Below the pieces are notes generated by a model. That model worked only from the letters and a program-made list of their open reading frames with translations. It ran no database searches and had not been told where the DNA came from. Positions 19,772 through 39,100 of a stretch of DNA of 64,000 nucleotides are shown piece after piece. The DNA is from Candidatus Altiarchaeales archaeon (GTDB taxonomy: Archaea; Altiarchaeota; Altiarchaeia; IMC4; SCGC-AAA252-I15). The position numbers and the translations under genes are program-made. Location of the stretch: NCBI GenBank assembly GCA_014727915.1, contig WJMO01000006.1, forward strand, positions 265,882 to 329,881, written 5' to 3'. Position 1 is the stretch's first letter, and each line of letters starts with the position of its first letter.

Positions 19772-19833
19772 GGAATACCATTTACCTTCTGTTTTTATAA
19801 CAGCAACCCCAATATGTTACTTGGTTGACGGTG

Positions 19834-20067
19834 ATGGATGTCAAGGTTTATTCTACGCCCACATGCCCCTGGTGCAAGCGCGTAAAGGAGTTCCTAAAGG
19901 CCAGGAACGTCGAATTCGAGGATGTTGACGTGGCAGGCAACCAGGAGGCCGCCCAGGAGATGGTGAAGAAGAGCGGGCAGATGGGCGTTCCAGTGATCGA
20001 AGTCGGTGAGACCATTATCGTGGGCTTCGACGAGGAAGCACTGAAGAAGGCATTGAAGCTGGAGTAA
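19834..20067 (+). CDS. glutaredoxin-like protein
   Basis: The sequence MDVKVYSTPTCPWCKRVKEFL carries a CPWC active site. GVPVIEVG is also present. The track starts at a TTG at 19825. Confidence 0.85.
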   Translation: MDVKVYSTPTCPWCKRVKEFLKARNVEFEDVDVAGNQEAAQEMVKKSGQMGVPVIEVGETIIVGFDEEALKKALKLE

Positions 20068-20068
20068 A

Positions 20069-20266
20069 ATGGTGAAGTACGTTATCGAATTCAACAGGGA
20101 TGCTTGTATCGGCTGCGGAGCCTGCGAGAAAGCCTGCGACAACTGGGTAATCCAAGAAGACGGCAAGAGCAAACCCAAAAAGGCGGAATTGGACGAGGTC
20201 GGGTGCAACAAGGACGCCGCCGACATATGCCCCGTCGCCTGCATAAAAATAAACGAGAAAAAGTAA
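20069..20266 (+). CDS. small 4Fe-4S ferredoxin
   Basis: Motifs present are CIGCGACEKAC and a distal CPVACI. The gene starts 1 nt after the glutaredoxin stop. Confidence 0.8.
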   Translation: MVKYVIEFNRDACIGCGACEKACDNWVIQEDGKSKPKKAELDEVGCNKDAADICPVACIKINEKK

Positions 20267-20277
20267 ATAATGAAGGT

Positions 20278-20316
20278 TTGGGGTTTATCCAACCCCAATA
20301 AAAAAAATATTTTTTA
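20278..20316. terminator. bidirectional terminator (hairpin plus oligo-A/T)
   Basis: A perfect 8-bp stem TTGGGGTT / AACCCCAA (20278..20285 and 20291..20298) encloses the loop tatcc. It is followed by taaaaaaaatatttttt. It sits between convergent genes. Confidence 0.5.
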
Positions 20317-20625
20317 GTCTTCTAGGTCTTCGTTCAGGTCTGCCTGGTCGGAGTCCTCTGAGACTGTCTCCTCGTCCGCGCCGGTAGGCCCGCCGTCGTC
20401 GACCGTTATCACAGCCTGCAGTTTCTCGATTAACCCGTTGACTATGTCCTCCTCTGGCGGGAACCCTATGCCGCCCCTGTACCTCCTCTCGCCGTCTGGG
20501 AGGTAGTATCCCTTGGAGATGTTCAGGAAAACAGCGTTGTCTGGTTTGACGCGCTTCTTGCTTACCTCTATGAACTTGTTGCGTCCATAGTCCACGTACT
20601 CGCTTGCAATTGTCTCGTATTCCAT
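20314..20625 (-). CDS. hypothetical small protein with acidic C-terminal tail
   Basis: The 103-aa protein has a beta-rich N-terminal ~70 aa (NKFIEVSKKRVKPDNAVFLNISKGYYLPDGERRYRGGIGFPPEE), faintly PC4/ssDNA-binding-like. The tail is DEETVSEDSDQADLNEDLED. Confidence 0.6.
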   Translation of the reverse strand: MEYETIASEYVDYGRNKFIEVSKKRVKPDNAVFLNISKGYYLPDGERRYRGGIGFPPEEDIVNGLIEKLQAVITVDDGGPTGADEETVSEDSDQADLNEDLED

Positions 20626-20697
20626 TTCAAATACCTCTTCTATAGAGTCTAGTTTATAAGTAATATCCTTTATAATTTAAATAGGAGGGCTGGAAGG
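20626..20697. promoter_or_regulatory. divergent promoter region of pilin locus 2
   Basis: There are two TATA-like boxes, gtttataag (20652..20660) and tttataatttaaata (20669..20683). A GGAGGG sequence (20684..20689) lies 8 nt before the TTG start at 20698. Confidence 0.4.
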
Positions 20698-21123
20698 TTG
20701 GACAAAAGAGGTCAGGCTTCGCTGGAATACATGGTAATGCTGGCATTGTCACTGGTTGTCTTCTCCGCCGTGCTGTATGTAACTGGTATGCTGATAAGCA
20801 CCAGCAGCATACAGGTGGGGGTGGACTCCGCCCACCGGGCGGTGGAGAAGATGAGGAGCTCCGCGGACTTCGTGTACGTCCACGGACACCCCTCAAGGAC
20901 TGAAATAAACGTTTACATGCCTCCGAACATCGAGGAAGTCAGCATCCCGGAGACCAACAACAGCATACGCGCCCGCGTGTCGGTCGGCGACACCTACACG
21001 GACATATACAGCGTCTCCAAGGGAAGCATATACGGCGACCTATCGCAGCTGGACAAGGAAGGCTACTACGTGCTACGCGTTGAATCCACTTCAGAACACG
21101 ACATAAACTTCACGCTGATATAG
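20698..21123 (+). CDS. pilin-like protein, type A' (class III signal peptide)
   Basis: The gene has a TTG start preceded by a Shine-Dalgarno-like sequence. The N-terminus is MDKRGQASLEYMVMLALSLVVFSAVL. It is a paralogue of 1..341. Confidence 0.75.
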   Translation: MDKRGQASLEYMVMLALSLVVFSAVLYVTGMLISTSSIQVGVDSAHRAVEKMRSSADFVYVHGHPSRTEINVYMPPNIEEVSIPETNNSIRARVSVGDTYTDIYSVSKGSIYGDLSQLDKEGYYVLRVESTSEHDINFTLI

Positions 21124-21127
21124 GCTC

Positions 21128-22102
21128 ATGAATAAACCATGGAAGAAGCGGGGACAGGTTAGCATAGAGTTCATGATAGTATTGGGGATAGTACTGACCA
21201 TCTTCATAATACTGGGCTACATCGTCTACAGGAACTACGTCAAGACAAGCGACCTTAAGGTCTACATATACGGCGTGCGATTGGCCAATCACATAGCGGA
21301 CAACATAAACACCATAAACGCCGTGGGAGAAGGTCACAGCACCTCCTTCAGCCTGCCGCCAAGCCTTTACGGAAACAGGGGATACAGCGTCAGCTTCTAC
21401 GAGAACTCTTCAACCGTCTATGTAGTGGGCACCAGCTTCTCACGCGGCGGGGGAGCGGTGACCTTCAGCAGCCCCATATCAACGGCGAACATCAACTGCC
21501 TGCTGGGAGAATGCAATATGGGATGCAATACGAGCCGGGTGGAGCAGTGCATCGCCGTTAACCGGAGCCTTGACATACGGCTTGTGAAGTACCAGGGAGG
21601 GATCTACATGACACAGGAGAACAATGTCATGCAGGCCAGTTCGGAGGGGTCCATCTCACCATTCACGGGAGAGGGGGATGTTACCGTTGGCAGCATACCA
21701 TCTTTCGTCGAGGTTGGAGAGGACTGGAACGTCATGTACGTCCACCATAACAGGTTAGACGACACAGTAAGCCTTGTGATAAGCCTCAACATCACCTCAG
21801 GGGATGCTGCAGAATACAACATATATGATATGGTAGGTGAGGTGTTGGAGGTGCAATCCAACGAGGCAGACCCCCAGAACCCCGAATTCAGCCTTAGCCG
21901 GCCTTTAGAGGGAGCCTGGAACAATGACCTGGGAGGGCTTGGAGACGTTGACGGGGCTGTTCTGAAGTTCAGGGACGGATTCCACCTCTGCATAGAGTCC
22001 GGTAGCGGCACTATGACTTCCAGCGACTGGAAGGTGGTCAGCTCGGACGGCAGTAGCATGCTCTTGGACAAGGAGGAGGACGTGTGCCTAGCATACCCGT
22101 GA
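21128..22102 (+). CDS. pilin-like protein, type B' (expanded)
   Basis: The N-terminus is KKRGQVSIEFMIVLGIVLTIFIIL. The first ~110 aa are collinear with 345..770, followed by a ~200-aa extra C-terminal domain. Confidence 0.75.
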   Translation: MNKPWKKRGQVSIEFMIVLGIVLTIFIILGYIVYRNYVKTSDLKVYIYGVRLANHIADNINTINAVGEGHSTSFSLPPSLYGNRGYSVSFYENSSTVYVVGTSFSRGGGAVTFSSPISTANINCLLGECNMGCNTSRVEQCIAVNRSLDIRLVKYQGGIYMTQENNVMQASSEGSISPFTGEGDVTVGSIPSFVEVGEDWNVMYVHHNRLDDTVSLVISLNITSGDAAEYNIYDMVGEVLEVQSNEADPQNPEFSLSRPLEGAWNNDLGGLGDVDGAVLKFRDGFHLCIESGSGTMTSSDWKVVSSDGSSMLLDKEEDVCLAYP

Positions 22103-22104
22103 AG

Positions 22105-24396
22105 ATGGAGAGAGGACAGATATTCACATGGGACCTGGTGTTCGGGATATCCGTATTCCTGATGACATTGTTCATCGTGACGCACGTGTGGAACAGCTCA
22201 TACAACGACCTAAGGCACGCTGAAGAGGAGTATGAGATGAACTGGCTTGCAGAAACCATCTCAGAACAGCTTGTGAGAACGGCCGGGGACCCGCTGAACT
22301 GGAGTCAAGGGCACGTGTTCGCCTTCGGCCTGGCGGAGGTCAAGGAAGGCCAGAGCAAATACGACAGCAGAGTGCTGGACGCCGACAAGATGCTCAAACT
22401 GGTAAGCAACTTCGGAGAGGACTATGAGGCTGCCAGGAACAACCTGCTAGGATCGAGCAAATACGAGATATACATAGAGTTCTCATGCGTAAACCGATCG
22501 GACCTAACATGCCTTCAGGGGCTTTTCCTGGACGAAATCAACGACCCAGTATCATGTGAGAACTATGTAATCGGGGTGAAGGACATGGTCACCAGCAGCT
22601 ACATATGGCTGGAGGCGGAGGATGAGTGGGGCAACTGGGAGGAATCCTACTGCTGGGAGGGGTGCAGCGGAGGCAACATGAGCCTGGTCCCCGACGGGAT
22701 CGAAGCGGATCTGAGCATGGACCCAGGGCTGTACCAGATGTGGGCTAGGGTGGTAGACCAGCAGACGAGCGCAGAGATGGTAGTGGACGGGCTGGCACAC
22801 CCGCTTCACCCGGATTCCGTGCCCGGGCCTGTCGGTTGGAAGTGGATAGGAGCTCAAGACCTCGGGAAAACAGCCAGGGTCCGCTTTGAGAAGACCGAAG
22901 GGGACATAGTAGACGCCCTGCTATTCACCACTGACCTCTTCTACGACCCCTCTCTGATAAACACCGAAGAATACGGGAACCCCGTTACATCCGACAAGTG
23001 CGTTATAGGGAAGGTCGGCAGGGGCCGCAACCACGTCACCGCAACCAAGAACGCTGTATTCGGGATGCCTGCAAAGGGCAGGGAGGTGATAACAGGGACG
23101 GCGGATAGGCTGGACAAGGAGTTGAACATGAAAGTCGTCGTCTGGACAGGCGAGGAACTGCCAGCCCGGGAGATGACAGGAACCGTAGGGACGAGCTCTA
23201 CGACATCCACCACCCTGCCTAAATGGATAGACTGCGAGGGTAGCCCAACGCCCGTGGAACCGTTGGAGGAATGCGAGTACGATTCTCACTCCATAGACAT
23301 AAGGAACATAACGCTATGGGGCCTCAATGGAATGAGCAGGGTCATCCGATGCGGGAGCGAGAAGAACCTCACAGTAAAGTGGCGTGGTAAGCACAGCAAC
23401 CACCCCAACTACTTCGCATTCTACCTTGACGACAGCCAACAGTACCTCGGGTCATGCCAGAGCGACAACACAGCGGAAGAGCTGATGGGAGAGGTCTACG
23501 ACTATGTCATGAACTGCACCATAGACATACCCGACGGGGACAGCTTCCCAGTCAAGGACGGATACCACGACTTCATAGTTACAGGCGAGGACTACGCAGG
23601 ATACTGCCCGCCAAGCCCCGGCGAGTTCTACGCAGACGATGAGGAGTCGACGAGAGTGGACGTCACGGAATGCATGGACTACACTAGCCTATCCTGCTCT
23701 CAGACCTCAGGAGTCGCGCTTAGGTGCGGAAGCGCAAGCGGTACGGTCGAGGAAGTATACGACGTAGAAGTGAGCGAACTAAACTGCGGATTCTTGAACC
23801 AGGTGGTGGTAAGGTGGGGTGGAACCCACGGAGCAGACAAGGAGGTATACTGGACTTTCGTCGTCGACACAGGAGAGGGTTTCAAGTGCCTTGGAACCTG
23901 CAAGTCGTCGGTGGACCCAGAGGACGGGCCAGGCAGGGAAGACTATGAGATGACATGTGACCTGAACCTGAACAACCTGGACTGTCTCGGAGACCCATAC
24001 AACATAGAAGGGGACTACTGGTTCTACGCAATCGCGGAATCAGACAACAGGGACTACTGCAGCCTGCCCAACAGTCCGGACGCTGAGGCGGTTGGCAGGA
24101 CCGGTAATCAGGTGACGGTGAACTGCATCCTATCCGGGAGCTACGTGCTCGTGAAATACTACGTTGACGTGGCGGTAGCGACCGGGTCGGAGCTGTGGAC
24201 GGACACCTCTGGGACATGGGAGGTGACGGCCACGGTCAGCCCGCTCGACCCGCCGACGGAAGGGGAGCACATGGCATTGATAGACGATATCGAACCCGGG
24301 GTTTACGAGTGGAACATCAAACTCTCCCCCGAGGGTGTGAAGCCGTTGACCAATGATTTCTTATACGATGAAAATCAAGAGTTAATAGTGGAGTAA
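22105..24396 (+). CDS. pilin-like protein, type C' with lectin-like and Cys-rich C-terminal domains
   Basis: The ATG at 22105 lies 2 nt after the B' stop (the track GTG at 22084 overlaps B'). The N-terminus is MERGQIFTWDLVFGISVFLMTLFIV. Motifs DPLNW..FGLAE..VLD are shared with 772..1281. A CBM6/35-like segment YIWLEAEDEW..SGG..LYQMWARV..GWKWIG..DALLFTTD lies at about 22600..22950. Confidence 0.7.
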   Translation: MERGQIFTWDLVFGISVFLMTLFIVTHVWNSSYNDLRHAEEEYEMNWLAETISEQLVRTAGDPLNWSQGHVFAFGLAEVKEGQSKYDSRVLDADKMLKLVSNFGEDYEAARNNLLGSSKYEIYIEFSCVNRSDLTCLQGLFLDEINDPVSCENYVIGVKDMVTSSYIWLEAEDEWGNWEESYCWEGCSGGNMSLVPDGIEADLSMDPGLYQMWARVVDQQTSAEMVVDGLAHPLHPDSVPGPVGWKWIGAQDLGKTARVRFEKTEGDIVDALLFTTDLFYDPSLINTEEYGNPVTSDKCVIGKVGRGRNHVTATKNAVFGMPAKGREVITGTADRLDKELNMKVVVWTGEELPAREMTGTVGTSSTTSTTLPKWIDCEGSPTPVEPLEECEYDSHSIDIRNITLWGLNGMSRVIRCGSEKNLTVKWRGKHSNHPNYFAFYLDDSQQYLGSCQSDNTAEELMGEVYDYVMNCTIDIPDGDSFPVKDGYHDFIVTGEDYAGYCPPSPGEFYADDEESTRVDVTECMDYTSLSCSQTSGVALRCGSASGTVEEVYDVEVSELNCGFLNQVVVRWGGTHGADKEVYWTFVVDTGEGFKCLGTCKSSVDPEDGPGREDYEMTCDLNLNNLDCLGDPYNIEGDYWFYAIAESDNRDYCSLPNSPDAEAVGRTGNQVTVNCILSGSYVLVKYYVDVAVATGSELWTDTSGTWEVTATVSPLDPPTEGEHMALIDDIEPGVYEWNIKLSPEGVKPLTNDFLYDENQELIVE

Positions 24397-24400
24397 TGTC

Positions 24401-27400
24401 ATGAAAAGGGTGGTTTTTTGTGTTTTCTGGCTTTTAACCCTGAGCAGCCTAGCTTCGGCTGACGTCACATACACAATCCACCCCCAGGAGCACACGTTCA
24501 GGCCTGGGGAGACGGTCGAATACTTCATAACAGTCAGCAACACAGGAGGAGCGACCGAGACTGTTGACTTCGACGTCACAGGACTGACCCCCGGATTCTC
24601 CTCTACGGTAGTGTACAGGGACGATGAAATACTAGCAGGAGCCTCCATAGTCGCCACTATGAGGATAACCGCCAACATCGGCGTCTCAGAGGGCACATAC
24701 ACCAACCAGGTAGTGGTGACCCCCAGCAGCCAGGGACCGTTGAGCGTTGACAACATCATACTACCAGGGCGCGGGAACCCCGTGGTAGAGGGGGTGGTGA
24801 ACTTCTGCCGGGACAGCGACAACCTGGTGAAGATGTCCTGCTCTTCCACGGGATACTTCGACTCCGACGCCCTGTGCGGGGGAGCCCAGGTCGGGCATTG
24901 GGTCGAGTTCGGCGATGGAGTGGACGCGGGCAAGTGCACGGAGATCGTGGGGGCAACCTGCGGTAGCGAATGCTGGCCGCTAGGACACCCGTGTCTGGAG
25001 ATAGGCATACCGGTAGTAGCGGAACAGGGCTACGCGTTCATGGTGTGGGAGAGCGGATTAAGCTGCAACGAGTTCGCCACAACAACCACCACATCAACGA
25101 CAGTAACGACCACCTCAAGCACGGTGATAACCACGACCAGCACCAGCACCACGTCGACCACCATATACCAGCCGCCGACCGAGAACTGCTGCAACCAGGT
25201 CGACGACGACGGCGATCCGTGGATCGACGGCGAGGACACCGTAGACTGCCAGAAGGACAGAGGACTGAACGTGGGCTGGAACAACATATGCTGGGCGACT
25301 AGGTGGGACGACTACGCCCCCAGCTCGGACTACCAGTCCGGCGAGTACACCTGCCCGACGGACCACATCGTCTCGGAAGTCGAGATAATCCAGTACATGG
25401 AGGATTGCTGCGACTACTTCCGCATATACGACTCGAGCGACAGCATAGTACACCAGAGCAACGGAGATAACGGGTTCAGGACCATCGACGTCAGGGGGGC
25501 GAGCACCCAGAGCATATACTTCGAGTTCACAAGCGACGGAAGCAACGAATACGACGGCGTGAGGGTGAACAGGATAGAATGCGAGCACGTGTCAGACCAG
25601 TGCCGGGACACGTGCATCTCGGAAGGCTACCTGGACGGACAGTGCAGGGGCATCGACCTCTCGGGCACATCATGCACCAGCTACCTACCGGACAGCTTCT
25701 GCGAAGTGGACTACCTTGGAGAGATGTGCTGTGAAGGGTTCTCCGACGGCACAGACTGCCCGGACAGCTCCTACGATTTCTTCGAGTCATGCTGCGAGAC
25801 AAACGGAAAATTCCTGGGAGGCTACGACCCAATGGCCCCGTTGGACTGCGCCGGTGAGGGAGTAACATTCGAGTGCGTGGATGACAACAACTGCGACGGA
25901 CTAGTATGCCTTGGGACCACCCACATAGGGAGGACTCCCTGCCCGTTCCCCGACCAGCAGCAGTGCTGCTGCAGTGGAACGCCCCAGACCACAACCACTA
26001 CGACCATAGTGTCCGCTCCGGAGGTCTGCTGCAACGACTACGACGACGACTACGACGGCTTGGAGGACGGAGAGGACGAGACGGACTGCAACGGAGACGT
26101 CACCCTGGAGGCTGGAGCGAACAGCGTATGCTGGTGGACGCGGTGGGACAACTACGCCTCTAGCTCGGACTACCAGTCCGGCCTCTACACCTGCCCGGCA
26201 GACCACATAGTTACAGACGTGGACGTCACGCAGGACATGGAAACATGCTGCGACTACTTTGAGATACTAGACGACACCGGAGCAGAGCTTCACAGCAGCT
26301 ACGGCCACTTCGGGGACAGGGTGATAGACCTTTCCACGCACAAGAAGCAGAGCATAAGGTTCCACTTCACCAGCGACATAAGCCAGGAATACGACGGCGT
26401 GAAGATAAACTCGATAACATGCGTGGAATACGTGGGCCCAACGACGACTTCGACCACATCCTCGACGGTGACCACATCAACCCTGCCCGGCGGATGCCTG
26501 GACATGGACGCGACACAGTACTGCGCGGTGACTGGCGGGCGCACGTTCACGGGAGAGTACATAACACGCGTGGACATTCATGGAATAGACCGCTCTTCGG
26601 GGCAGGAACGCTACCTGGACGCTACGGACAGCGTCACGGACCCGCTAGTGAAGACCGGAGTATACATGCTAAGGCTCTACTATCCGGCGGCTACAGGCCA
26701 GGCCGGCGACTGCTTCGCGGCCTGGTTCGACTGGAACCAAGACGACAACTTCGACGACGGAACGGAAAGGATCAGCCTTGGCTGCGCCCACACCGGCTCA
26801 GACCACATAGACGGTTTCGTCGGAGTACCATCGTCCGCGGTGAACGGGCCGACGATGTTCAGGATCATGGGCGAGGACGGCACACCCCCAGGCCCCTGCA
26901 CGGACCCGAGCTTCAACGAGATAGAGGATTACTCGGCATGCATAACGGACACAGGAACCCCGGCAACGACAACGACAACGACATCCACAACCCTGCCAGG
27001 GCCCGAGCTGATAATATCGGACGTCATAGTTTCGCCGAACCCGCCGGTGGCGGGGCAGAACAACGACCTCCAAGTCACCGTAAAGAACCTTGGCGTGGTG
27101 GAGGTCACAAACACTGACCTTTACATTTCATTCAAGGCCCAGGGAACAAGCTGCGGATGGACCAGCAAGTTCGTCTCTTCACTACCTTACAACGGAGAGA
27201 CCGTGTTCAGCGGGTTGTCCTACTTCATCGACACGGCCAGCGTAGGGAACGACCTGCTGATCGACGTCGACGTCAACCCCAACCTATGCGGGAGCGATAG
27301 GAACTATGTCAGCGAGGTCTTCGAGGACAACAACCAGTGGAATGCGGGCGCGGTAGAATCCCCGCCGATGCCGGACCTGATAATAACCGACGTGCAGCCG

Positions 27401-30400
27401 AGCCCGGACCCGCCGGAAGGGGACGCAACGAACAGCTTTGACGTGACAGTCAAGAACGTGGGAAGCGACAGCACAGGATCGGCCACAACATACCTTTCGG
27501 CTGATGTGGCCGGCACCAGCTGCCAGGAGACGAGCATATTCCTGAACGACCTCGCCCCGAACTCCCAGCAGACCTATACGATGAGCTTCTTCATCAACGC
27601 CGGAAGCGCGGGGCAGCCCATATACTTCGACGTCGACTACGGGCCGAATCTATGCGGTTATTTCAGGAGCTACATCACAGAGGAGGATGAGACAAACAAC
27701 GGATTCATAGGGCCGACCGTCCTGCCAGATACCATGGGATTGAGGAACCCTGGCTTCGAATCCGGGAGTGGCGCGGACGCGGACAACTGGGATGAAAGCT
27801 TCGCCAGTGCGGATAGGTCGAGCGACAGGTCGCATGACTCCACATATTCCATGAAGTTCATAGCCCCCAACACACCCCAGTCGGTGTTCCAGGAGACGGT
27901 TAGGGTTCTGCCAAACGTCGAATACCGCCTTGGAGGGTGGATATACGACAGCCTGACATCGGGTAACGCATACCTGGACCTGAACGACATAGGAGAGGAG
28001 TGCGAAGCCGGTTCGACGCTTAACGGCCAGTGGGAGCACGTGGAATGCACGTTCACAACGGGCAGCAGCAGAGAGATCGTCACCGTCCGTATGGTCACCG
28101 ACGGCTCCATCGCAGGGAACACAGGCAACGTATGGTTCGACGACCTGGAGCTGGAGCCTGCCGCGGCGGCGCCGGAGGTCTGCTGCAACGACGCGGACGA
28201 CGACTTCGACTCGTTGGAGGACGGCGAGGACATGGTGGACTGCAGCCAACCAGCCGTTTCGCTCTCCCCAGGATCTAACAGCGTTTGCTGGTGGACGCGG
28301 TGGAACGACTACGAACCGGGTTCAAGCTACAAGTCCTTCACCTTCGAATGCCCGAGCGGATACCACGTGAGCGAGCTGAACATGGACGTCGACACCGAGG
28401 CCAACAATGACGTCATAAGCATCTACGACGACTACACAAACTTCCTGCTGGCGGAGAGGAGCGGGAGCAGGCCCTCGGAGACCGTCGACGTGTCCGAGTT
28501 CAAGAAGGGCAGCGTGCACATGTGGTTCAGCAGCGACAGCAACACACAATACGACGGGGTCAAGGTGAACACGATCACATGCGGCCAGAGCCTGGACACC
28601 TGCGACGCGGAATGCCTGTCAAGGGGTTTCGACTCCGGAACGTGCCGGCCCATAGACTTGTCAGGGACCTTCTGCAGGGAATTCCTCCCTGATACCTGGT
28701 GCACAATAGACGATCCGGGCGGGAACCTCTGCTGCGAGGGCCCCGCGGACACGGACCTGGACTGCGCCAACGACCCGTACATGTTCTACTCGGCATGCTG
28801 CGGGCAGAACGGGGAATACCTGACGGAATACGACCCTATGGGTCCGGCTAACTGCGGCTTTGAGGGAAGCACCTTCTGGTGCGCAGCCACGGACCCTTGC
28901 AACGGCGTCTGCCTCGGGGACAGACACATCGGAAGGACGCCCTGTGCGGACCCGGACAATGAGGTGTGCTGCTGCGCGGGCATCGGTCCCACGACCACAA
29001 CATTGGGTGTGGCAACAGAGATCTGCTGCAACGACTTCGACGACGACACGGACGGGTTGGAGGACGGAGAGGACGAATCAGACTGCGACATGGACGTCAA
29101 CCTGAACACCGGGACAAACAACGTGTGCTGGTGGACGCGGTGGAACGACTACGCATTCGGCTCCAACTACGGGTCGGGATGGTACATATGCCCGGCGGGG
29201 AACATAGTGTCGGAGGTCAGCATAACCCAGGACATGGAAAGCTGCTGCGACTACTTCAGCATATACAATTCAGGCAATACAATCATAGATTCGAGCAACG
29301 GGCAGCAGGGAACTAGGACTTTGGACCTGTCAGCGGACGGCACAGACAGGATAAGGTTCGAGTTCACAAGCGATGGGAGCGTCCAATATGACGGGGTGAA
29401 GGTCCACACGATCACCTGCTTTGAGCCCACGCCAGAGGACTGCTGCAATGGCATAGACGACGACACGGACGGGTTAATGGACGGGGAAGACGAGGCAGAC
29501 TGCGGTGGGGGAGTGGCGATGCTCAGCAACACCGTTAATCCGATATGCTGGTGGACGCGGTGGGACGACTACTCACCTTTCTCAGACTATAACTCCCCCG
29601 TCTACGAGTGCCCTTTGAACAGCAAGGTGACGGATGTCGAGGTGGACCTGCAGACGGAGGGAGGTTATGACTACTTCAGGATATACGATGACGACGGGGA
29701 CGTTCTCTTGGAGGAGTTGGACGGGCAGTTCGGACTGTATACCGCAGACATCTCAAGCGACGACGCCAGGAGCATCTACTTCAACTTCTACAGCAACAGC
29801 GGAATCGAATATGACGGTGTAAAAATCAACAGCATAACCTGCGCGCAGATGACGACTACCACCTCGACCACCCTGCCGACAGCGATAACCGAGGGCGTGG
29901 TGGACGAGTGCGACGACACGGTCGACGGCGCGGGAACGTTCTGCGTCAGCGGGGAGGGCTTCAGCTCGGCAGCCCTGTGCGGCGGAGTCCAGGCAGGCGA
30001 CTGGGTCGGATTCCACACGGGATACGAGAGCGGCAGGTGCCTGGAGGTGGACACGACATTCTGCACTCCCTGCTTCGGAGGCTCCAACGACTGCATATAC
30101 TTCAACGAGGTCTTCCCCTTGACGATACAGCAGGGCGACCAGTTCAAAGTATGGGATAGTCTTACCGACTGCCTCGACGACGTGCCCGCGATACCCGCGG
30201 GGACCAACCTGGAGATAGTGAAGCTGGGCTCGAGCTGGGGGCAGATAGGCACGTACAACTCCGTGGACTTGAACGCGTATGTCAAGAACACCGGCACAGC
30301 CAACGCCGCCGCCACATTGTACGCGGACTTCCTGGTGGAGCACCCCAACGGCGACACCTGCCTCGCGGACACCCGAAGCACGGCATTGAACCCGAGAGAG

Positions 30401-33400
30401 GTCGGAAAGTTCACAGTACTATGGGACACTGACATAGACGTGGGTACTAACACGGTGACTGCATTCATCGACAAGGACAACACCTGCGGCAGCGGCCATG
30501 ACACGAACTCGGAGACTGATGAAACAGACAATTCGATCGTCGAAACGTTCGACGTGGCAGGCCCCGACCTGGTGATAACCGACGTATCAACCTCCCCGGA
30601 CCCTTTGGATGAGGGGAGCAACGACATCACCGTTACGGTCGAGAACATCGGTGGATCGACAGCATACGACCCGATAACGGTTAAGGTAAACGTTCCCGGG
30701 GAGCCGTGCGCCAGCGCGAACACGTTCGGACAGATGGACCCGGGACAGACTGAGACGGTCAGCATAAGCGGGTACGTGCTGAGCGCCAACGCAGGAGGCC
30801 GGCAGCTGAATGCGTCAGTTGACGCTAACCCGGACGTCTGCGGCCAGGACAGCGACAACACCCCATACGAGGAGGACGAGAGCAACAACGAATACGCGGA
30901 CGGCATAGTCGCCGGGGGAGGCCCCGACCTGCAGATAACCGACCTGCAGCTTAGCGACACAACACCCGCGAAAGGAGATTACATAACGTTCACCGCGACC
31001 GTGGAGAACACCGGGTCCTTCGAGACTACCATCGGTTGGATATACGTGGACATGGTCTTGGACGACGGGAGCTGCCTGTGCACGGGCAACGCATACGTGA
31101 ACATGCAGCCGGGTGACGCGAGGACTTTCAGCTGCGGGTGGACCGTGAACAAGGTGGGGACGCGCACAATAACGGCCATCGTCGACGGGCCGAACGACGA
31201 TAACAGCTGCGCCAACCACGATTACATCGACGAGATGAGCGAGACCAACAACGGCTTCCCGTACAACGTGGACATCGCCGGACCCGACCTGGTCATCGAG
31301 AACTTCCAGATGACACCCGCAAGCCCAGCATACAACGAGCAGGTGACGTTGAGCGCGGACGTCCGGAACACCGGGACCACAGCCACGGGTTGGGGCACCA
31401 AGTACATCTACTTCTCGCTCGATGACGGGATATGCCCCAGCATAGGCAACACCTACAGGAACCTCGACATCGCCGCTGGAGGGGTAGAGTCTTTCTCCCG
31501 GACATGGAACGCAAACACGAGGGGAACACGCACGATAACAGCGTCCGTAGACTCTAAAACACCCTGCGCCAACTACGACAACACCCCCGAGACCGACGAA
31601 TCGAACAACAACGCGACCACCGCCCCCTTCCACATACCGGGTCCGGACCTCCAGATAAGCAACCTAGTCATAAGCGACATGACACCCGCCATGGGGGACA
31701 GCGTTACCTTCACGGCTACCGTAGTGAACACCGGCGACGAAGCGACCAGCGGGAACAAGTACATCAAGTACGTGACGAACGAGAGCGAATGCCTCATCGC
31801 CACCTCGAAGAACGTGAACCTCGCCGCGGGCGGAGGCACCGACACCATAACGGGGAACTGGAACGTGAACGTCGCTGGGAAGCAGACGATAACGGCGATG
31901 ATAGACCGGAACCACGTTTGCGCCAACTACGACTACACCGACGAGACCGACGAGGGCAACAACAACTTCACGTCCACGCTGGTGGACATAACGCCCCCCG
32001 ACCTGGTAGTGGAGAGCCTCGAGTTCATACCATCAGACCCGGGAATAGGGGAGAATGTGATACTGAGAGCGACCATCAGGAACGACGGCACCGCAAAGGC
32101 GGTTAACAGTATCTATGTGATGTTCCAGAACGCCACCAGCTGCATAGGATACAGGAGCACCAGTTTGGACATCAACCCAGGGCAGAGCTACCAGATGTCT
32201 GATTACACCTGGAGCATGAAGTGGCCGGGCACCCAGACGATAACAGCCACCGTAGACAGGGACATCGCGGGATGCAATTGGAACTTCGACTACAACGCCG
32301 AAGCGGACGAGACAAACAACGAGCTGGCGAACACGTTCACTGTTTTGCAGCCGGACCTGATAATAGAGTCCCTGCAGGTGGAGCCTGCGAGCCCCGGAAC
32401 CAACGAGTACGTAACGTTCAGGGCTACCGTGGGGAACCAAGGACCGGGCACCGCAGGATACACTATACAGGTAGGATTCAAGAACGCTACAACCTGCATC
32501 GCGACCTCCCTCTCCTCCAATGACATACCTCCAGGCGGGAGCCTCGACATAACGCACAGCAGATACTGGAGGTGGCCCGGGGCGCAGACCCTGACTGCCT
32601 ACGTGGACACGGAAGTGCCAGCTTGCAGCTGGTACTTCGACAACCACCCCGACGAATTGGACGAAGGCAACAACGACTTGTCAACCACGTTCACCGTCCT
32701 CCAACCCGACCTGGAGATAGTCAACGTCGTCCCGGACCCTGACCCCCCGGCGCCGGGAGCCAACTACTTCGACATAACCGTCCGAAACAACGGGCCAGGG
32801 ACCGCGGGCGGGAACATAGTTGTGACTTACAAGTCGCCGGGTACATCCTGTGTGTCAAGGTCCACCGGCACGGACATACCATCGGGCGGGGAGTACACGT
32901 TCAACAACCAATACTACAACATGCAGGCCGCGAGCGCAGGGCAGGGTGTCATGTTCGACGTGGACAAGGCGGACAGCCTATGCGGCAACGACCAAGACAA
33001 CAACATTGAGACCGACGAGACCAACAACGAATACCAGATCGGCTCAGTATCCCTGCCAGACCTGGTGGTAAGCAACGTGGCCACCAGCCCGGACCCGCTT
33101 GCGGCAGGGCAGTGGAACGACCTGGACATAACCATAGAGAACCAGGGAGCCGGGCCGACGGACAGCAGCTACATATACACGTCCGTGATAGCCCAGGGTT
33201 CGAACTGCAACAACTACAACACCCCCTATAACCTACACCTCGCCCCCGGGGAATCATACACGTACAACGTACAATACTACATATACGGGTCAAGCTCTGG
33301 GGAGAACCTAGTCGCGTCGGTGGACGCGAGCCCCAGCGTCTGCGGAGGAACCAGCTACAACTACAACATAGAGTCGGACGAGACCAACAACCAGCACACC

Positions 33401-33418
33401 ATCGGAGTGATAACTTAA
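24401..33418 (+). CDS. giant secreted multidomain surface protein (3005 aa), putative adhesin
   Basis: The ORF is uninterrupted and starts 4 nt after the C' stop. It has a Sec signal peptide (MKRVVFCVFWLLTLSSLASA). Its modular content is listed in the repeat features and findings. Confidence 0.9.
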   Translation: MKRVVFCVFWLLTLSSLASADVTYTIHPQEHTFRPGETVEYFITVSNTGGATETVDFDVTGLTPGFSSTVVYRDDEILAGASIVATMRITANIGVSEGTYTNQVVVTPSSQGPLSVDNIILPGRGNPVVEGVVNFCRDSDNLVKMSCSSTGYFDSDALCGGAQVGHWVEFGDGVDAGKCTEIVGATCGSECWPLGHPCLEIGIPVVAEQGYAFMVWESGLSCNEFATTTTTSTTVTTTSSTVITTTSTSTTSTTIYQPPTENCCNQVDDDGDPWIDGEDTVDCQKDRGLNVGWNNICWATRWDDYAPSSDYQSGEYTCPTDHIVSEVEIIQYMEDCCDYFRIYDSSDSIVHQSNGDNGFRTIDVRGASTQSIYFEFTSDGSNEYDGVRVNRIECEHVSDQCRDTCISEGYLDGQCRGIDLSGTSCTSYLPDSFCEVDYLGEMCCEGFSDGTDCPDSSYDFFESCCETNGKFLGGYDPMAPLDCAGEGVTFECVDDNNCDGLVCLGTTHIGRTPCPFPDQQQCCCSGTPQTTTTTTIVSAPEVCCNDYDDDYDGLEDGEDETDCNGDVTLEAGANSVCWWTRWDNYASSSDYQSGLYTCPADHIVTDVDVTQDMETCCDYFEILDDTGAELHSSYGHFGDRVIDLSTHKKQSIRFHFTSDISQEYDGVKINSITCVEYVGPTTTSTTSSTVTTSTLPGGCLDMDATQYCAVTGGRTFTGEYITRVDIHGIDRSSGQERYLDATDSVTDPLVKTGVYMLRLYYPAATGQAGDCFAAWFDWNQDDNFDDGTERISLGCAHTGSDHIDGFVGVPSSAVNGPTMFRIMGEDGTPPGPCTDPSFNEIEDYSACITDTGTPATTTTTTSTTLPGPELIISDVIVSPNPPVAGQNNDLQVTVKNLGVVEVTNTDLYISFKAQGTSCGWTSKFVSSLPYNGETVFSGLSYFIDTASVGNDLLIDVDVNPNLCGSDRNYVSEVFEDNNQWNAGAVESPPMPDLIITDVQPSPDPPEGDATNSFDVTVKNVGSDSTGSATTYLSADVAGTSCQETSIFLNDLAPNSQQTYTMSFFINAGSAGQPIYFDVDYGPNLCGYFRSYITEEDETNNGFIGPTVLPDTMGLRNPGFESGSGADADNWDESFASADRSSDRSHDSTYSMKFIAPNTPQSVFQETVRVLPNVEYRLGGWIYDSLTSGNAYLDLNDIGEECEAGSTLNGQWEHVECTFTTGSSREIVTVRMVTDGSIAGNTGNVWFDDLELEPAAAAPEVCCNDADDDFDSLEDGEDMVDCSQPAVSLSPGSNSVCWWTRWNDYEPGSSYKSFTFECPSGYHVSELNMDVDTEANNDVISIYDDYTNFLLAERSGSRPSETVDVSEFKKGSVHMWFSSDSNTQYDGVKVNTITCGQSLDTCDAECLSRGFDSGTCRPIDLSGTFCREFLPDTWCTIDDPGGNLCCEGPADTDLDCANDPYMFYSACCGQNGEYLTEYDPMGPANCGFEGSTFWCAATDPCNGVCLGDRHIGRTPCADPDNEVCCCAGIGPTTTTLGVATEICCNDFDDDTDGLEDGEDESDCDMDVNLNTGTNNVCWWTRWNDYAFGSNYGSGWYICPAGNIVSEVSITQDMESCCDYFSIYNSGNTIIDSSNGQQGTRTLDLSADGTDRIRFEFTSDGSVQYDGVKVHTITCFEPTPEDCCNGIDDDTDGLMDGEDEADCGGGVAMLSNTVNPICWWTRWDDYSPFSDYNSPVYECPLNSKVTDVEVDLQTEGGYDYFRIYDDDGDVLLEELDGQFGLYTADISSDDARSIYFNFYSNSGIEYDGVKINSITCAQMTTTTSTTLPTAITEGVVDECDDTVDGAGTFCVSGEGFSSAALCGGVQAGDWVGFHTGYESGRCLEVDTTFCTPCFGGSNDCIYFNEVFPLTIQQGDQFKVWDSLTDCLDDVPAIPAGTNLEIVKLGSSWGQIGTYNSVDLNAYVKNTGTANAAATLYADFLVEHPNGDTCLADTRSTALNPREVGKFTVLWDTDIDVGTNTVTAFIDKDNTCGSGHDTNSETDETDNSIVETFDVAGPDLVITDVSTSPDPLDEGSNDITVTVENIGGSTAYDPITVKVNVPGEPCASANTFGQMDPGQTETVSISGYVLSANAGGRQLNASVDANPDVCGQDSDNTPYEEDESNNEYADGIVAGGGPDLQITDLQLSDTTPAKGDYITFTATVENTGSFETTIGWIYVDMVLDDGSCLCTGNAYVNMQPGDARTFSCGWTVNKVGTRTITAIVDGPNDDNSCANHDYIDEMSETNNGFPYNVDIAGPDLVIENFQMTPASPAYNEQVTLSADVRNTGTTATGWGTKYIYFSLDDGICPSIGNTYRNLDIAAGGVESFSRTWNANTRGTRTITASVDSKTPCANYDNTPETDESNNNATTAPFHIPGPDLQISNLVISDMTPAMGDSVTFTATVVNTGDEATSGNKYIKYVTNESECLIATSKNVNLAAGGGTDTITGNWNVNVAGKQTITAMIDRNHVCANYDYTDETDEGNNNFTSTLVDITPPDLVVESLEFIPSDPGIGENVILRATIRNDGTAKAVNSIYVMFQNATSCIGYRSTSLDINPGQSYQMSDYTWSMKWPGTQTITATVDRDIAGCNWNFDYNAEADETNNELANTFTVLQPDLIIESLQVEPASPGTNEYVTFRATVGNQGPGTAGYTIQVGFKNATTCIATSLSSNDIPPGGSLDITHSRYWRWPGAQTLTAYVDTEVPACSWYFDNHPDELDEGNNDLSTTFTVLQPDLEIVNVVPDPDPPAPGANYFDITVRNNGPGTAGGNIVVTYKSPGTSCVSRSTGTDIPSGGEYTFNNQYYNMQAASAGQGVMFDVDKADSLCGNDQDNNIETDETNNEYQIGSVSLPDLVVSNVATSPDPLAAGQWNDLDITIENQGAGPTDSSYIYTSVIAQGSNCNNYNTPYNLHLAPGESYTYNVQYYIYGSSSGENLVASVDASPSVCGGTSYNYNIESDETNNQHTIGVIT
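25076..25165 (+). repeat. Thr/Ser-rich linker (low complexity)
   Basis: This segment encodes ATTTTTSTTVTTTSSTVITTTSTSTTSTTI. Similar shorter T-rich linkers lie at about 25981..26010, 26441..26480, 26950..26990 and 29851..29880. They also occur at 52430..52487 and 52981..53040 in another gene. Confidence 0.85.
25181..26431 (+). repeat. segmental unit 1: CUB-like module / Cys-rich module / CUB-like module
   Basis: CUB-like copies lie at 25181..25590 and 26015..26431. Each has CCN.(D)DD.D...DGED..DC, then (I/V)CW(A/W)TRW(D/N)(D/N)Y, CP, CCDYF.I(Y/L)D, F.FTSD....YDGV.(V/I)N.I.C. They flank a ~130-aa Cys-rich module (25591..25975). Confidence 0.8.
26485..26948 (+). other. GEVED-like domain within giant protein
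   Basis: The segment contains ..CFAAWFDWNQDDNFDDGTERISLGC.. and ends in FNEIEDYSACI, which compares with the W.D.N.DG.F / GEVEDY signatures of the GEVED domain. Confidence 0.5.
26996..27705 (+). repeat. two CARDB-like Ig repeats
   Basis: The repeats are PELIISDVIVSPNPPVAGQNNDLQVTVKNLG ... EDNNQWN and MPDLIITDVQPSPDPPEGDATNSFDVTVKNVG ... EEDETNNGF. Confidence 0.7.
27726..28165 (+). other. CBM4_9-like carbohydrate-binding jelly roll within giant protein
   Basis: The segment begins LRNPGFESGSGADADNWDE and ends NVWFDDLELE. The N.GFE.G...W start and the final hydrophobic-D-D-h-.l strand are typical of CBM4/9-type modules. Confidence 0.5.
28169..29425 (+). repeat. segmental unit 2: CUB-like module / Cys-rich module / CUB-like module
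   Basis: The order is the same as in unit 1: CUB-like at 28169..28593, Cys-rich at 28594..28985, CUB-like at 29011..29425. The Cys-rich modules align throughout (C.(D/A).C(I/L)S.G(Y/F)(L/D).G.CR.IDLSGT.C...LPD..C ... HIGRTPC..PD...CCC(S/A)G). The DNA string tgctggtggacgcggtgg recurs at about 26129, 28277, 29126 and 29546. Confidence 0.8.
29426..29850 (+). repeat. fifth CUB-like module
   Basis: The module reads PEDCCNGIDDDTDGLMDGEDEADC...ICWWTRWDDY...YDYFRIYDDDG...IYFNFYSNSGIEYDGVKINSITC. Confidence 0.75.
30195..33415 (+). repeat. tandem array of nine CARDB-like Ig repeats
   Basis: Unit starts lie at about 30195, 30560, 30919, 31279, 31639, 31994, 32348, 32702 and 33055, a period of 353-365 nt. 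Each unit begins (G/P/Q)PDL.(I/V), then ..P..G....(T/I)..(V/I).N.G, and ends E(T/S)DE(T/S/G)NN. Confidence 0.8.
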
Positions 33419-33429: not shown

Positions 33430-33435
33430 TTTTTT
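33430..33435 (+). terminator. oligo-T tract after giant gene
   Basis: A T6 run begins 12 nt after the stop codon at 33418. This is archaeal oligo-T terminator logic only. Confidence 0.3.
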
Positions 33436-33459
33436 AGGGATATATCCATTTAATTGTAC

Positions 33460-34980
33460 ATGGGCGGCCATAAGCTCCGATGGGAACTGATAGCAGGGAA
33501 TGGCTTGGGTAAGACTGCTAGGAAGGCTTTCAACACCCTCCCGTACCTAATACTCGTCCTTCAGGTCCTGACTTACATGCTCATATTCACGGCGACCACC
33601 TTCAACGAGTACAACCGGTTCTGGTACGGGAACTTCGACCTGGGAATACCAGACCAGGGCATATGGCTGCTGTCAAGGTTCCAGAACCCCTACCTGACGA
33701 CCAGGGGGCTGCACCTTTTCGGAGACCACGCATCCTACATACACCTGCTCGTCGCGCCCATATACTGGATATGGGACGACGTCAAAGCCCTGCTGCTGCT
33801 GCACACTGCGGCGTTGGCCATAGCGGCGGTTCCGGTATACCTGATCGCCCGGGACAAGTTCGGCAACAACTGGACGCCGCTGGTGTTCAGCCTCTCATAC
33901 ATCATGCTACCGGCGGTACACTACAGCAACCTCGACCAGGGATACCACTATGAGACTTTCATGGTGCCCTTCCTGCTCTTCGGATACTGGTTCCTCACAC
34001 GCAAGATGTACAAGCCATACTATCTTATGATATTCCTCTCCCTCATCTGCAAGGAGGAGATAGCAGTGTCCATAGTGCTGTTCGGGGTCTACGTTGCGTT
34101 GAAGCACGACCGGAAGGCGGGTGTTATTACCTCGGCTGCTGCATTGTTCTACCTGCTCATGGTGATGAAGGTGCTGTTCCCGATATTCAACCAGGAGGGG
34201 GCGTTCTATACCGACCGAACCCTCGGCTCATACGGTAAGACGCCGTTGGACAAGGTGAAGAGCTTCACAAACACCACGTTGATGGAGAAGAAGCTGAACA
34301 CCGAGAAGAACAGGGTTTACGTGAAGAAGCTTCTGGAGTCAACAGGGTACATGGTCTTGCTGGAGCCAATAGCAATGGCGGCATCGGGATCGCTGTGGCT
34401 CAACATGCTCCAGGACTGGTCCTACGCCCACGAGATACAGTACCACTACGTCACGCCCATCATACCGTTCATATACATAGCCCTGATAAACGGGATTGGG
34501 AGGTTCAGGAGGAGCGAGGGTATTATGGCCATGCTCTTGTACCTGATTCTACTTTCCACGTTCTACGGGAACTACCATAACAGCCCCGGGCAGAGCACCC
34601 TACGCCACCCCGAGCGGATGATGACCGAGATAGAGAACTTCGACGAGGTGACGGAGGAGAACGCCGGCATACTGGAGTTGATGGATTCCATACCGGATGA
34701 CGCGTCCGTCTCCGCCACATACGACTTCGTCAGCCATCTCAGCCACCGGAAGACCATATACATGTTCCCCAACCCGTTCAGGATAAACCTGTACGGGATA
34801 GAGGAGCGGGGCGTCCACCCCGACAAGGACGTCGACTACGTGCTGTTGGACATGCGGCTGATAGGGGACGAAGAGCAGAAGCACGGGTCCGTCAGCAAGG
34901 TCACGAAGAGCGGGAAGTACGAGCTGGTGAGAGAGTACAGGTTCGTCCAGCTATGGAAGTACAAGGGAGAGCCCGAATAG
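33460..34980 (+). CDS. DUF2079-like polytopic membrane protein (probable GT-C)
   Basis: The ATG is at 33460. The sequence ..LFGDHASYIHLLVAPIYWIWDDVKALLLLHTAALAIAAVPVYLIA.. fits the lg.H..pi.ll..P.y.l....ll..q....a..a.p.y pattern of DUF2079. There is a large C-terminal extracytoplasmic domain. Confidence 0.65.
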   Translation: MGGHKLRWELIAGNGLGKTARKAFNTLPYLILVLQVLTYMLIFTATTFNEYNRFWYGNFDLGIPDQGIWLLSRFQNPYLTTRGLHLFGDHASYIHLLVAPIYWIWDDVKALLLLHTAALAIAAVPVYLIARDKFGNNWTPLVFSLSYIMLPAVHYSNLDQGYHYETFMVPFLLFGYWFLTRKMYKPYYLMIFLSLICKEEIAVSIVLFGVYVALKHDRKAGVITSAAALFYLLMVMKVLFPIFNQEGAFYTDRTLGSYGKTPLDKVKSFTNTTLMEKKLNTEKNRVYVKKLLESTGYMVLLEPIAMAASGSLWLNMLQDWSYAHEIQYHYVTPIIPFIYIALINGIGRFRRSEGIMAMLLYLILLSTFYGNYHNSPGQSTLRHPERMMTEIENFDEVTEENAGILELMDSIPDDASVSATYDFVSHLSHRKTIYMFPNPFRINLYGIEERGVHPDKDVDYVLLDMRLIGDEEQKHGSVSKVTKSGKYELVREYRFVQLWKYKGEPE

Positions 34981-37226: not shown

Positions 37227-37228
37227 GT

Positions 37229-39094: not shown

Positions 39095-39100
39095 TTGAGA

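Follow-up and report, generated by a model that had tools for sequence, protein, structure and literature searches.

A second set of type IV pilin-like genes, without its own ATPase, in a probable Epd/Tad-like filament system of Altiarchaeota

Archaeal loci that combine at least five minor pilins with split TadC genes and KaiC-like ATPases were described by Makarova et al. 2016 (PMC4858521), whose evidence points to an interaction of a single ATPase/TadC pair with several different pilin sets. System 1, which has two platform genes, occurs in methanogens, Thermococcales and DPANN archaea, and large adhesin-like proteins are encoded in several type IV filament loci (Sivabalasarma & Albers 2026, bioRxiv 10.64898/2026.04.22.720090). 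In bacteria, Myxococcus xanthus equips one Tad pilus with interchangeable tips from four paralogous KilL/M/N (TadE/F/G-like) trios (Herrou et al. 2025, PMC12075869), and Streptococcus sanguinis has the modular pilins PilB, which carries a vWA module, and PilC, which carries Ig and ConA-like lectin modules (PMC9934059). Here we analyse a 64,000-nucleotide stretch of contig WJMO01000006.1 from a Candidatus Altiarchaeales archaeon (the window) and, within it, the pilin-like genes A2, B2 and C2 (set 2), which are followed directly by a gene for a very large secreted protein (the giant). We conclude that this region is probably a second type IV pilin-like set, devoid of an ATPase, of an Epd/Tad-like archaeal filament system in Altiarchaeota. 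An initial annotation had suggested that such an arrangement was undescribed in archaea, which overstated its novelty, as a shared ATPase/TadC pair and PilY-like tip adhesins were already proposed in 2016 (PMC4858521).

In its gene content, the window resembles archaeal clade 1 (System 1) loci such as the Methanococcus maripaludis Epd locus (PMC3875500); the ATPase was compared by identities only. A T2SSE ATPase is accompanied by two separate T2SSF genes, at least five pilin-like genes with QxSxE-type class III signals (PF04021/UPF0333) and KaiC-like ATPases. As in Epd-type loci, pilin genes are also found away from the machinery, and large adhesin-like proteins are encoded alongside. Unlike Epd loci, the window contains neither an EppA-type peptidase nor a major pilin of ~70 residues resembling EpdE; in Methanococcus, the short EpdE-like pilin is encoded away from the main locus, so that its lack in a single window carries little weight. 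Two further features set it apart from clade 1: the adhesin carries CARDB, CUB-like and CBM domains instead of DUF2341/PilY-like ones, and the families of B, C and of two pilin-like proteins encoded further downstream (D3 and D3b) match no Pfam family above the curated threshold.

Set 2 repeats the first three genes of a five-gene set (A1 to E1, set 1) at the left end of the window. BLASTP aligned A1 with A2 over 96 residues (30% identity, E = 2e-9), B1 with B2 over 126 residues (25%, E = 2e-9) and C1 with C2 over 84 residues (26%, E = 3e-10). In a control with 200 shuffles and residues 1–35 cut off, the cognate pairs reached z-scores of 13.5 (A), 6.0 (B) and 3.1 (C), against a maximum of 2.6 for non-cognate pairs. 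Profiles built with orthologues were aligned by hhalign, both at full length and with the signal and hydrophobic segment trimmed. The probabilities were 95% for A1/A2 (E = 4e-8; trimmed 95%, 2e-8), 97.8% for B1/B2 (E = 1e-12; trimmed 94%, 1.5e-7) and 98.2% for C1/C2 (E = 4e-14; trimmed 81%, 1.2e-5). Trimmed non-cognate pairs stayed at or below 4%, with E1/C2 as the sole exception: their ectodomains match over 130 columns (95.8%, E = 8e-9). Because the trimmed alignments and the shuffles remain positive, a paralogy confined to the generic hydrophobic N-terminus is refuted for A, B and C. On these alignments, A2, B2 and C2 are true paralogues of A1, B1 and C1, respectively, and keep their order, which bears out the repeated A-B-C arrangement that the initial annotation had read at 20698–24396. 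The motifs it had quoted are present in both copies, SADFVY in A1 and A2 and GxPxNW, GLAE and VLD in C1 and C2; among 18 C2-family sequences, most of the C motif residues (P, W, G-L, D) are invariant.

Other parts of that reading need revision. A1 is truncated by the window edge, and its orthologue in the related lineage L016 has 142 residues and the N-terminus MSG/QASVEW (slashes mark the cleavage site here and below). A is therefore not expanded in set 2, and the proposed growth along the sets (141/324/763 residues in set 2 versus 142/141/169 in set 1, with A1 taken from the orthologue) applies to B and C only. The paired alignments extend past the N-terminus for A, B and C, whereas both pairwise comparison and hhalign restrict the likeness of D1 and D3b to 26 N-terminal columns. 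An expanded type D protein had been proposed at the third locus; its first gene, D3, instead encodes a protein of the Q type, similar to A and B.

The N-termini have the features of class III leaders, namely a short charged stretch up to [KR]G, about 20 hydrophobic residues and an acidic residue near position +5. Cleavage after the glycine of [KR]G would leave the A and B proteins with Gln(+1) and Glu(+5), G/QxSxE[YF], which is the Epd/Flp pattern (A2, KRG/QASLEY; B2, KRG/QVSIEF; B1, VRG/QVTVEY). C1, C2, D1 and D3b share RG/xxx[TS]xD with an aspartate at +6 (C2, ERG/QIFTWD), and D3 orthologues begin with RKGQIPIEN or RRGQVSIEN. A2 and B2 match PF04021 (Class_IIIsignal) at 25.9 and 24.8 bits, above the gathering threshold of 23.7. 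AlphaFold2 models calculated from family alignments predict the helix and beta-domain architecture of pilins for both A2 and C2. The A2 model (predicted local distance difference test score, pLDDT, 89) has a helix of 59 residues (4–62) followed by a seven-stranded beta domain; the C2 model (pLDDT 78) has a helix of 56 residues (2–57) followed by several beta-sandwich domains. The A2 family comprises 93 clusters labelled ‘UPF0333’, and Altiarchaeota is the label of all source-named A2 and C2 homologues as well as of the closest ATPase homologues. A scan of ten pilin-like proteins against NCBIfam returned nothing meaningful (TIGR03816 for A2, E = 0.22), and a literature search for DUF7287–7289 returned nothing.

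The A-B-C order is preserved in relatives. We compared the genomic contexts of 11 lineages with a C2 homologue and found A, B and C in the same order in all 11, so the linkage predicted by the initial annotation holds for every relative examined. Wherever the contig extends upstream, A is preceded by a divergent gene of ~100 codons, up1, whose product is 57–81% identical in L001–L007, L013 and L015. In L018 and L020, an A gene stands alone with only up1 next to it. The up1 protein matches nothing in Pfam or the PDB and may act as a dedicated regulator or chaperone. A resemblance to PC4-like single-stranded DNA-binding proteins was considered and dropped, as neither database supported it. In close relatives, the entire neighbourhood is syntenic.

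The comparison also clarifies the third locus. C and D3/D3b are contiguous in 7/7 long contigs, separated by a gap of 3–7 kb; D3 orthologues follow 3–7 kb past C in L002, L004, L013 and L021, and the intervening genes encode a GT2 glycosyltransferase, a PTPS_related protein and an NPCBM_assoc protein. Because D3/D3b lie close behind C in relatives, loci 2 and 3 are one ancestral locus and not the separate cassettes that had been suggested. Judged from these gene layouts, their split in the window is due to the growth of the giant and to an extra block of ~11 kb with genes of the glycosylation type. L019, identified by its A2 homologue of 39% identity, has the gene order T2SSE-A-B-C-D3b-like-…-KaiC-T2SSE-T2SSF, with an 873-residue D3b-like protein encoded directly after A-B-C (99%, E = 4.5e-18). 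By position, D3b thus corresponds to the operon's fourth gene (D). The same lineage encodes two tandem small pilins (137 and 142 residues; 7408–8376, minus strand), which lie upstream of the T2SSE-A-B-C-D operon and are transcribed away from it. Both show homology to the first ~150 residues of D3 and are candidate major pilins in L019, which suggests that D3 is a pilin with an acquired large Cys-rich extension. The ~11-kb block itself (34995–46116) is absent from this place in L013 and encodes an 808-residue protein without family match, an asparagine synthase, a GT2 protein, a 1703-residue multi-pass membrane protein without family match and a methyltransferase.

Open reading frames (ORFs) of the window were scanned for assembly machinery, and only one T2SSE ATPase and one T2SSF pair were found, both at locus 1 next to set 1. 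Set 2 thus has no ATPase or platform of its own, in line with the initial annotation. The ATPase is 59–74% identical to its Altiarchaeota orthologues and 47–55% identical to the next-best sequences, from DPANN archaea; a PilB3_C match was sub-threshold. In L016, a full A(142)-B-C-D-E set is followed by the ATPase, and the machinery orthologues are 61–78% identical. Orthologues of the locus-1 ATPase occur on the same contigs as C2 orthologues in close relatives. In L015, the most divergent lineage, one T2SSE gene and two T2SSF genes stand back-to-back with the trio; together with the L019 layout, this ties the trio firmly to type IV filament machinery and identifies A-B-C-D as an ancestral operon order. 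We also considered that the L015 ATPase may be a paralogue dedicated to set 2; the identities (38% between L015 and the window, 54% between L015 and L019, 48% between the window and L019) do not separate two clades.

Several observations accompany the machinery genes. A KaiC-like ATPase and its 106-residue partner, encoded between the two T2SSF genes, are kept in L016 (73% and 78% identity) and present in L017, and a further KaiC-like gene lies at 11756–12466. Between E1 and the ATPase are F1 and G1 (2850–4274, plus strand), neither with a family match. F1 encodes 327 residues with a Sec signal and a Cys-rich C-terminus, and G1 encodes 125 residues without a signal. Both are missing in L016, where the ATPase follows E directly.

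Identities within the sets fall from A onward. A2 is the most conserved member of set 2: in close relatives, A2 is 67–74% identical, B2 40–51% (31–51% over its orthologues) and C2 36–43%, compared with 43–77% for housekeeping neighbours; the series is 59, 44, 36, 28 and 31% for A1 to E1 and 74, 44, 43, 42 and 54% for set 2. Stand-alone pilin genes are typical of major pilins (PMC4858521), and since A is very conserved and sometimes stands alone, we favour a role for it as filament-forming or at least base subunit. A2 is thereby more akin to a filament subunit than to a subunit of the tip.

The predicted structure of A2 and the linkage to machinery also bear on a different view, in which the pilin-like N-termini would be cleavable membrane anchors, or parts of a bindosome-like assembly, that hold the ectodomains near the cell without an extended filament. 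Class III signals are indeed widespread on archaeal binding proteins (bioRxiv 10.64898/2026.04.22.720090), and set 2 consists of very large proteins in four out of five cases. However, A2 is compact, with 141 residues and a long predicted helix typical of polymerising subunits, L015 and L019 link the set to a complete locus with ATPase and platform, and no ABC transporter genes are linked to it. We regard such an assembly as very unlikely.

A number of points weigh against placing set 2 in an Epd/Tad-like filament system. B1 remains below the PF04021 threshold (14.6 bits), and the C, D and E types do not match this family, their N-termini reaching only sub-threshold DUF7287. Sequence profile searches of the PDB gave no match for the C2 family and noise only for the A2 family. 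Foldseek returned OB-like folds for the A2 model (best E = 0.058) and, for the C2 model, only generic Ig/macroglobulin-like arrays with TM scores of ~0.1, so that no fold family can be assigned. These searches thus link neither protein with a solved pilin; both are assigned as pilins from their signal, helix and genomic context, and the role of A2 as filament body or base would follow from its conservation and gene context only. Two components are missing. No short (~70-residue) EpdE/Flp-like major pilin is encoded in the window, where a motif scan of all six frames returned B1, A2 and B2 only, and no prepilin peptidase (Peptidase_A24, EppA-type with nine transmembrane segments) was found in the scanned window ORFs or the related loci inspected. 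Essential parts must therefore lie elsewhere. Finally, it is plausible, by proximity alone, that set 2 shares the locus-1 machine, and the genome probably has more than one machine, the second just past the left edge of the window, because an operon with FlaH/FlaI/FlaJ-like genes adjoins A1 in L016. The single machine envisaged for all sets by the initial annotation is accordingly less well supported. The L016 operon, at 1652–6919 (minus strand) upstream of the A1 orthologue, is archaellum-like and encodes, in the order of transcription, proteins of 239 and 111 residues, a KaiC/FlaH-like protein (242 residues), a T2SSE/FlaI-like protein (550 residues) and a FlaJ-like membrane protein (582 residues).

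The larger set-2 proteins are modular. B2 consists of a pilin module homologous to B1 and a C-terminal extension of ~190 residues without known domain. C2 contains a C1-like pilin module, an E1-like beta domain (~153–283) and Cys-rich beta-sandwich domains; given the ectodomain match between E1 and C2, we describe it as a pilin module of the C type to which E-like and other beta domains have been added. The common domain of ~130 residues has the motifs W.EAED…YxxWVR…VDxxLLTTD and no Pfam model, and could be a module of the carbohydrate-binding type. The ectodomains of C2, D3 and D3b span ~600–900 residues. C-terminal additions in the C family include Peptidase_C1 and, in one C homologue, an F5/8 discoidin domain, and D3b orthologues carry Laminin_G_3 (concanavalin-like). 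These C-terminal modules are thus interchangeable, in support of this part of the initial reading. A PPC-like extension had been proposed as well, and the Pfam scan found no PPC domain in the window's pilin-like or giant proteins.

Such fusions recall PilB and PilC of S. sanguinis, in which a pilin module is joined to Ig-like, lectin-like and other modules and a small pilin (PilA) is found alongside. The likeness here consists of predicted domains, namely Laminin_G_3 in the D3b orthologues and the galactose-binding discoidin domain in one C homologue. Unlike the S. sanguinis pilins, to which no sequence relation was detected, the proteins described here have larger ectodomains (up to ~850 residues) that lack a Pfam model.

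The layout also resembles that of the Kil tips of Myxococcus. Judged from the genes, the arrangement is Tad-tip-like: a three-gene operon, the largest member of which has a variable distal domain, is found as paralogous clusters at separate loci of one genome. Both systems comprise a short, an extended and a large pilin with many cysteines, and in both a single Tad-type machine has been proposed to serve the trios. In contrast, the Kil system is bacterial and has four sets versus two here, no giant non-pilin partner is present at Kil tips, and A may here be a subunit of the filament and not of the tip. Homology to TadE is sub-threshold: PF07811 matched B1 and B2 with E = 0.073 and 0.054, at ~14 bits against a cut-off of 22.9.

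This geometry speaks for a reading in which the A-B-C trios would be interchangeable priming or tip cassettes of one machine and the giant a PilY1-like non-pilin partner at the tip. Two paralogous trios are present, sizes rise along the operon, the largest protein has variable distal modules and the layout matches that of the KilL/M/N tips (PMC12075869). On the other side, the TadE matches stay below threshold, and the stand-alone A genes of two lineages are not what one would expect of a tip subunit. What the giant contributes to this question depends on its domains and on its distribution.

ORF inspection confirmed the positions of A2, B2, C2 and the giant, including the 3005-residue frame, and the spacers of 4, 2 and 4 nt between A2 and B2, B2 and C2, and C2 and the giant, all as initially annotated. 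GGAGG lies 9–14 nt upstream of the TTG start of A2. The layout fits a single four-gene transcription unit A2-B2-C2-giant, as suggested by the 4-nt coupling, the T-run past the giant's stop codon, and the TTTATAA boxes and GGAGG before A2. The giant begins with a classical Sec signal peptide (residues 1–20, MKRVVFCVFWLLTLSSLASA/DV; …LSSLASA/DV), and its sole hydrophobic segment spans residues 4–23. We mapped its domains by scanning the full-length sequence and ten segments of it against Pfam. CARDB (PF07705) matched 11 stretches (E = 7.5e-72), GEVED matched with E = 2.5e-12, DUF11 was sub-threshold, and the piecewise scan added a near-threshold CBM_4_9-like match and weak CUB-like repeats. From the N-terminus, the order is signal peptide, DUF11/CARDB-like region, Cys domains, five CUB-like repeats with acidic CCN..DDD..DGED motifs, GEVED, two CARDB domains, the CBM_4_9-like domain and about ten C-terminal CARDB domains. 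The protein is acidic and has Thr-rich linkers (T 10.8%, D 10.0%, G 9.1%). By domain content, it belongs to the cell-surface proteins with repeated CARDB domains behind a secretion signal, and ‘adhesin’ is a reasonable label for it. Neither scan revealed a pilin N-terminus, a PilY1 beta-propeller, a vWA domain or DUF2341; a functional analogy to PilY1/PilC had been suggested initially.

The position of the giant nevertheless recalls type IVa minor pilins with PilY1/PilC, where a large non-pilin secreted protein is likewise encoded directly after pilin-like genes. Unlike in those systems, the signature domains are missing, the linkage is restricted to a sub-clade, and the four core minor pilins resembling GspH/I/J/K were not identified. 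Because the sequence comparisons fall short, the locus cannot be placed in the TadE/F/G or PilY1 families, although the workings would be alike.

Across the 11 lineages, the slot after C is variable. A secreted protein on the same strand occupies it in 4/11, and it is related to the giant in only 2–3 of them; thus, of the A-B-C-giant linkage expected initially, the A-B-C part stands in full and the giant part only among the nearest relatives. In L013/L014, an uninterrupted 702-residue orthologue with a Sec signal starts 1 nt past the C2 stop codon and is followed by DUF2079. It matches giant residues 20–116 once and the domain at 128–225 four times; relative to it, the giant has expanded by internal duplications, which are old judging from the DNA. 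In public gene calls, this ORF (12273–14381 of L013, plus strand) is split into a 165-residue minus-strand gene and a 458-residue gene, probably because of a low-complexity linker rich in Thr, Ser and Pro. The P0003 contig has an 831-residue CARDB protein, whose kinship with the giant is probable, and DUF2079 in the slot, and in L002 the slot is taken by an unrelated PEGA/dockerin protein. No comparable protein is present in the other seven lineages. DUF2079 and a CARDB protein co-occur downstream of C2 in the window, L013 (DUF2079 67% identical) and the P0003 contig. On this distribution, the giant is an add-on of a sub-clade and not part of the core of the system.

These data can be accommodated if the giant is independent of the pilins, a glycosylated, Sec-secreted surface or matrix adhesin in a hypervariable slot that shares only regulation with them. 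The slot occupants are non-homologous or absent across lineages, genes for glycosyltransferases and surface proteins are densely packed in the region, the giant travels with DUF2079 and not with C, and it grew by old internal duplications. However, the junctions with C2 (4 nt in the window, 1 nt in L013) leave no room for a promoter or terminator, the terminator-like T-run is found only past the giant, and a protein without its own anchor needs some partner to stay on the cell. We consider this independence a real possibility, short of favouring it.

The same junctions speak for the giant as tip partner of the trios: it is translationally coupled to C2 and unanchored, its N-terminal domains are the part kept in the L013 orthologue, and a downstream secreted protein occurs only after C proteins of 756–801 residues and not after those of 969–1128. 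Against this, L021 and L022 combine a C protein of ~760 residues with an empty slot, the slot is filled in a minority of lineages and once by an unrelated protein, PilY1-type domains are missing, and the C-terminal additions in C homologues show no homology with the giant. Taken with the arguments from the trios, we find this arrangement unlikely, and from gene order and domains we think it doubtful that the giant is displayed on the filament as a partner. The stronger version, in which one Epd/Tad-like motor would serve alternative sets and C2, D3, D3b and the co-transcribed giant would form exchangeable adhesive tips, appears improbable. We also considered that the additions of long C proteins might be a fused giant (‘fusion versus separate gene’). 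This was dropped, as BLASTP found no homology of the additions to the giant or the L002 PEGA protein and short C proteins without a downstream gene occur.

A further possibility is suggested by Ca. Altiarchaeum hamiconexum, which has two membranes and a 32-nm periplasm and whose hamus protein is Sec-dependent, acidic and rich in Thr and Gly, spans both membranes and is unrelated to pilins; its assembly was left open (PMC4460559). Set 2 might accordingly be a short pseudopilus or piston, similar to type II secretion, that drives proteins of the giant type over the periplasm and outer membrane, and a related variant, a role in building hamus-like appendages, is a possibility. The giant is likewise Sec-dependent, unanchored, acidic and rich in Thr and Gly. 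However, neither the window nor related loci showed a secretin-like or outer-membrane component, a double membrane in this high-GC lineage is a supposition, and hami homologues are reported to be mostly absent outside Alti-1 (PMC4975002). The trio is also kept where no cargo gene is linked, and the ectodomains of C2, D3 and D3b are very large for pseudopilins. We judge this mechanism highly improbable.

We therefore return to the favoured explanation, a second pilin set of an Epd/Tad-like filament system. The prepilins would be inserted by Sec and cleaved behind the glycine of [KR]G by a prepilin peptidase whose gene lies beyond the window. They would be polymerised via their N-terminal helices by the T2SSE ATPase and two T2SSF proteins at 4321–9035 or, alternatively, by a second machine elsewhere in the genome. 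A2, which is small, very conserved and sometimes encoded alone, would most likely make up the body of the filament or else the base of a priming complex. B2, C2, D3 and D3b would be low-copy ‘modular pilins’ and the binding specificity of the filament would come from their enlarged ectodomains, which are Cys-rich, Thr-linked and probably glycosylated. The giant would be co-transcribed and exported separately via Sec as an unanchored adhesin or matrix protein, a sub-clade-specific accessory in the variable slot after C. The features discussed are listed in Table 1.

Table 1. Pilin-like sets, assembly machinery and adjoining features in the window.
Feature	Coordinates	Strand	Description
A1	1–341 (cut at window start)	+	set 1 pilin-like
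B1	345–770	+	set 1 pilin-like
C1	772–1281	+	set 1 pilin-like
D1	1278–1667	+	set 1 pilin-like
E1	1655–2845	+	set 1 pilin-like
T2SSE ATPase	4321–6060	+	PF00437, E = 4.5e-32
T2SSF platform genes	6064–6951, 8055–9035	+	PF00482, E = 6.8e-17 and 3e-15
106-residue partner of KaiC-like ATPase	6948–7268	-	between the two T2SSF genes
KaiC-like ATPase	7273–8064	-	263 residues; between the two T2SSF genes
up1	20314–20625	-	103 residues; soluble, strongly acidic C-terminal tail; divergent from A2
Shared divergent promoter region (putative)	20653–20689	+	two TTTATAA boxes and GGAGG; from intergenic sequence
A2	20698–21123	+	141 residues, TTG start; class III signal pilin, Epd/Flp-type
B2	21128–22102	+	324 residues; class III signal pilin-like
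C2	22105–24396	+	763 residues from ATG (770 from GTG at 22084); modular pilin-like
Giant	24401–33418	+	3005 residues; Sec-exported, unanchored, multidomain
T6 run, terminator-like (putative)	33430–33435	+	12 nt past the giant's stop codon; from sequence
DUF2079 membrane protein	33454–34980	+	Pfam E = 1.5e-60
D3	49939–51792	+	617 residues; Q-type pilin-like, Cys-rich ectodomain
D3b	51806–54448	+	880 residues; pilin-like, MRRG/YLVTLD, Thr-rich linker, large ectodomain

The window as a whole has a high coding density and a G+C content of ~55%. Together with the ~11-kb block, the GT4, PMT_2, DUF2079, GT2 and PTPS_related genes give the 64-kb stretch the appearance of a cell-surface glycosylation island. 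Three ORFs are probably spurious, at 7102–7683 (plus strand), 12953–14128 (minus strand) and 19894–20298 (minus strand); the real genes at these places, on the opposite strand or in a different frame, encode KaiC, triosephosphate isomerase (13386–14090), and glutaredoxin (19825–20067) with a ferredoxin-like protein (20069–20266). Rfam and tRNA scans of the window gave no matches, and an exact-sequence look-up for B2 found no record.

In full-text literature searches we found no description of pili in Altiarchaeota, for which hami are the only described appendages. If the exchangeable-tip version were true, it would correspond, in archaea, to the Myxococcus Kil ‘Tips’ with PilY1-like cargo and, in a double-membraned relative of hami-bearing archaea, it might explain how large Sec-exported proteins are carried outward; that the giant is a sub-clade add-on tempers this original claim. 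The locus extends a known idea, the customisation of pili by alternative pilin sets, to a little-studied archaeal phylum, and is no new kind of system. It provides a concrete phylum-wide gene set (up1, A-B-C and D3/D3b) and defines several protein families without a Pfam model. It would thereby offer an archaeal test case for two principles shown so far only in bacteria, namely that one type IV machine is customised by alternative minor-pilin sets and that pilins serve as scaffolds of exchangeable modules such as protease, discoidin and Laminin-G domains.

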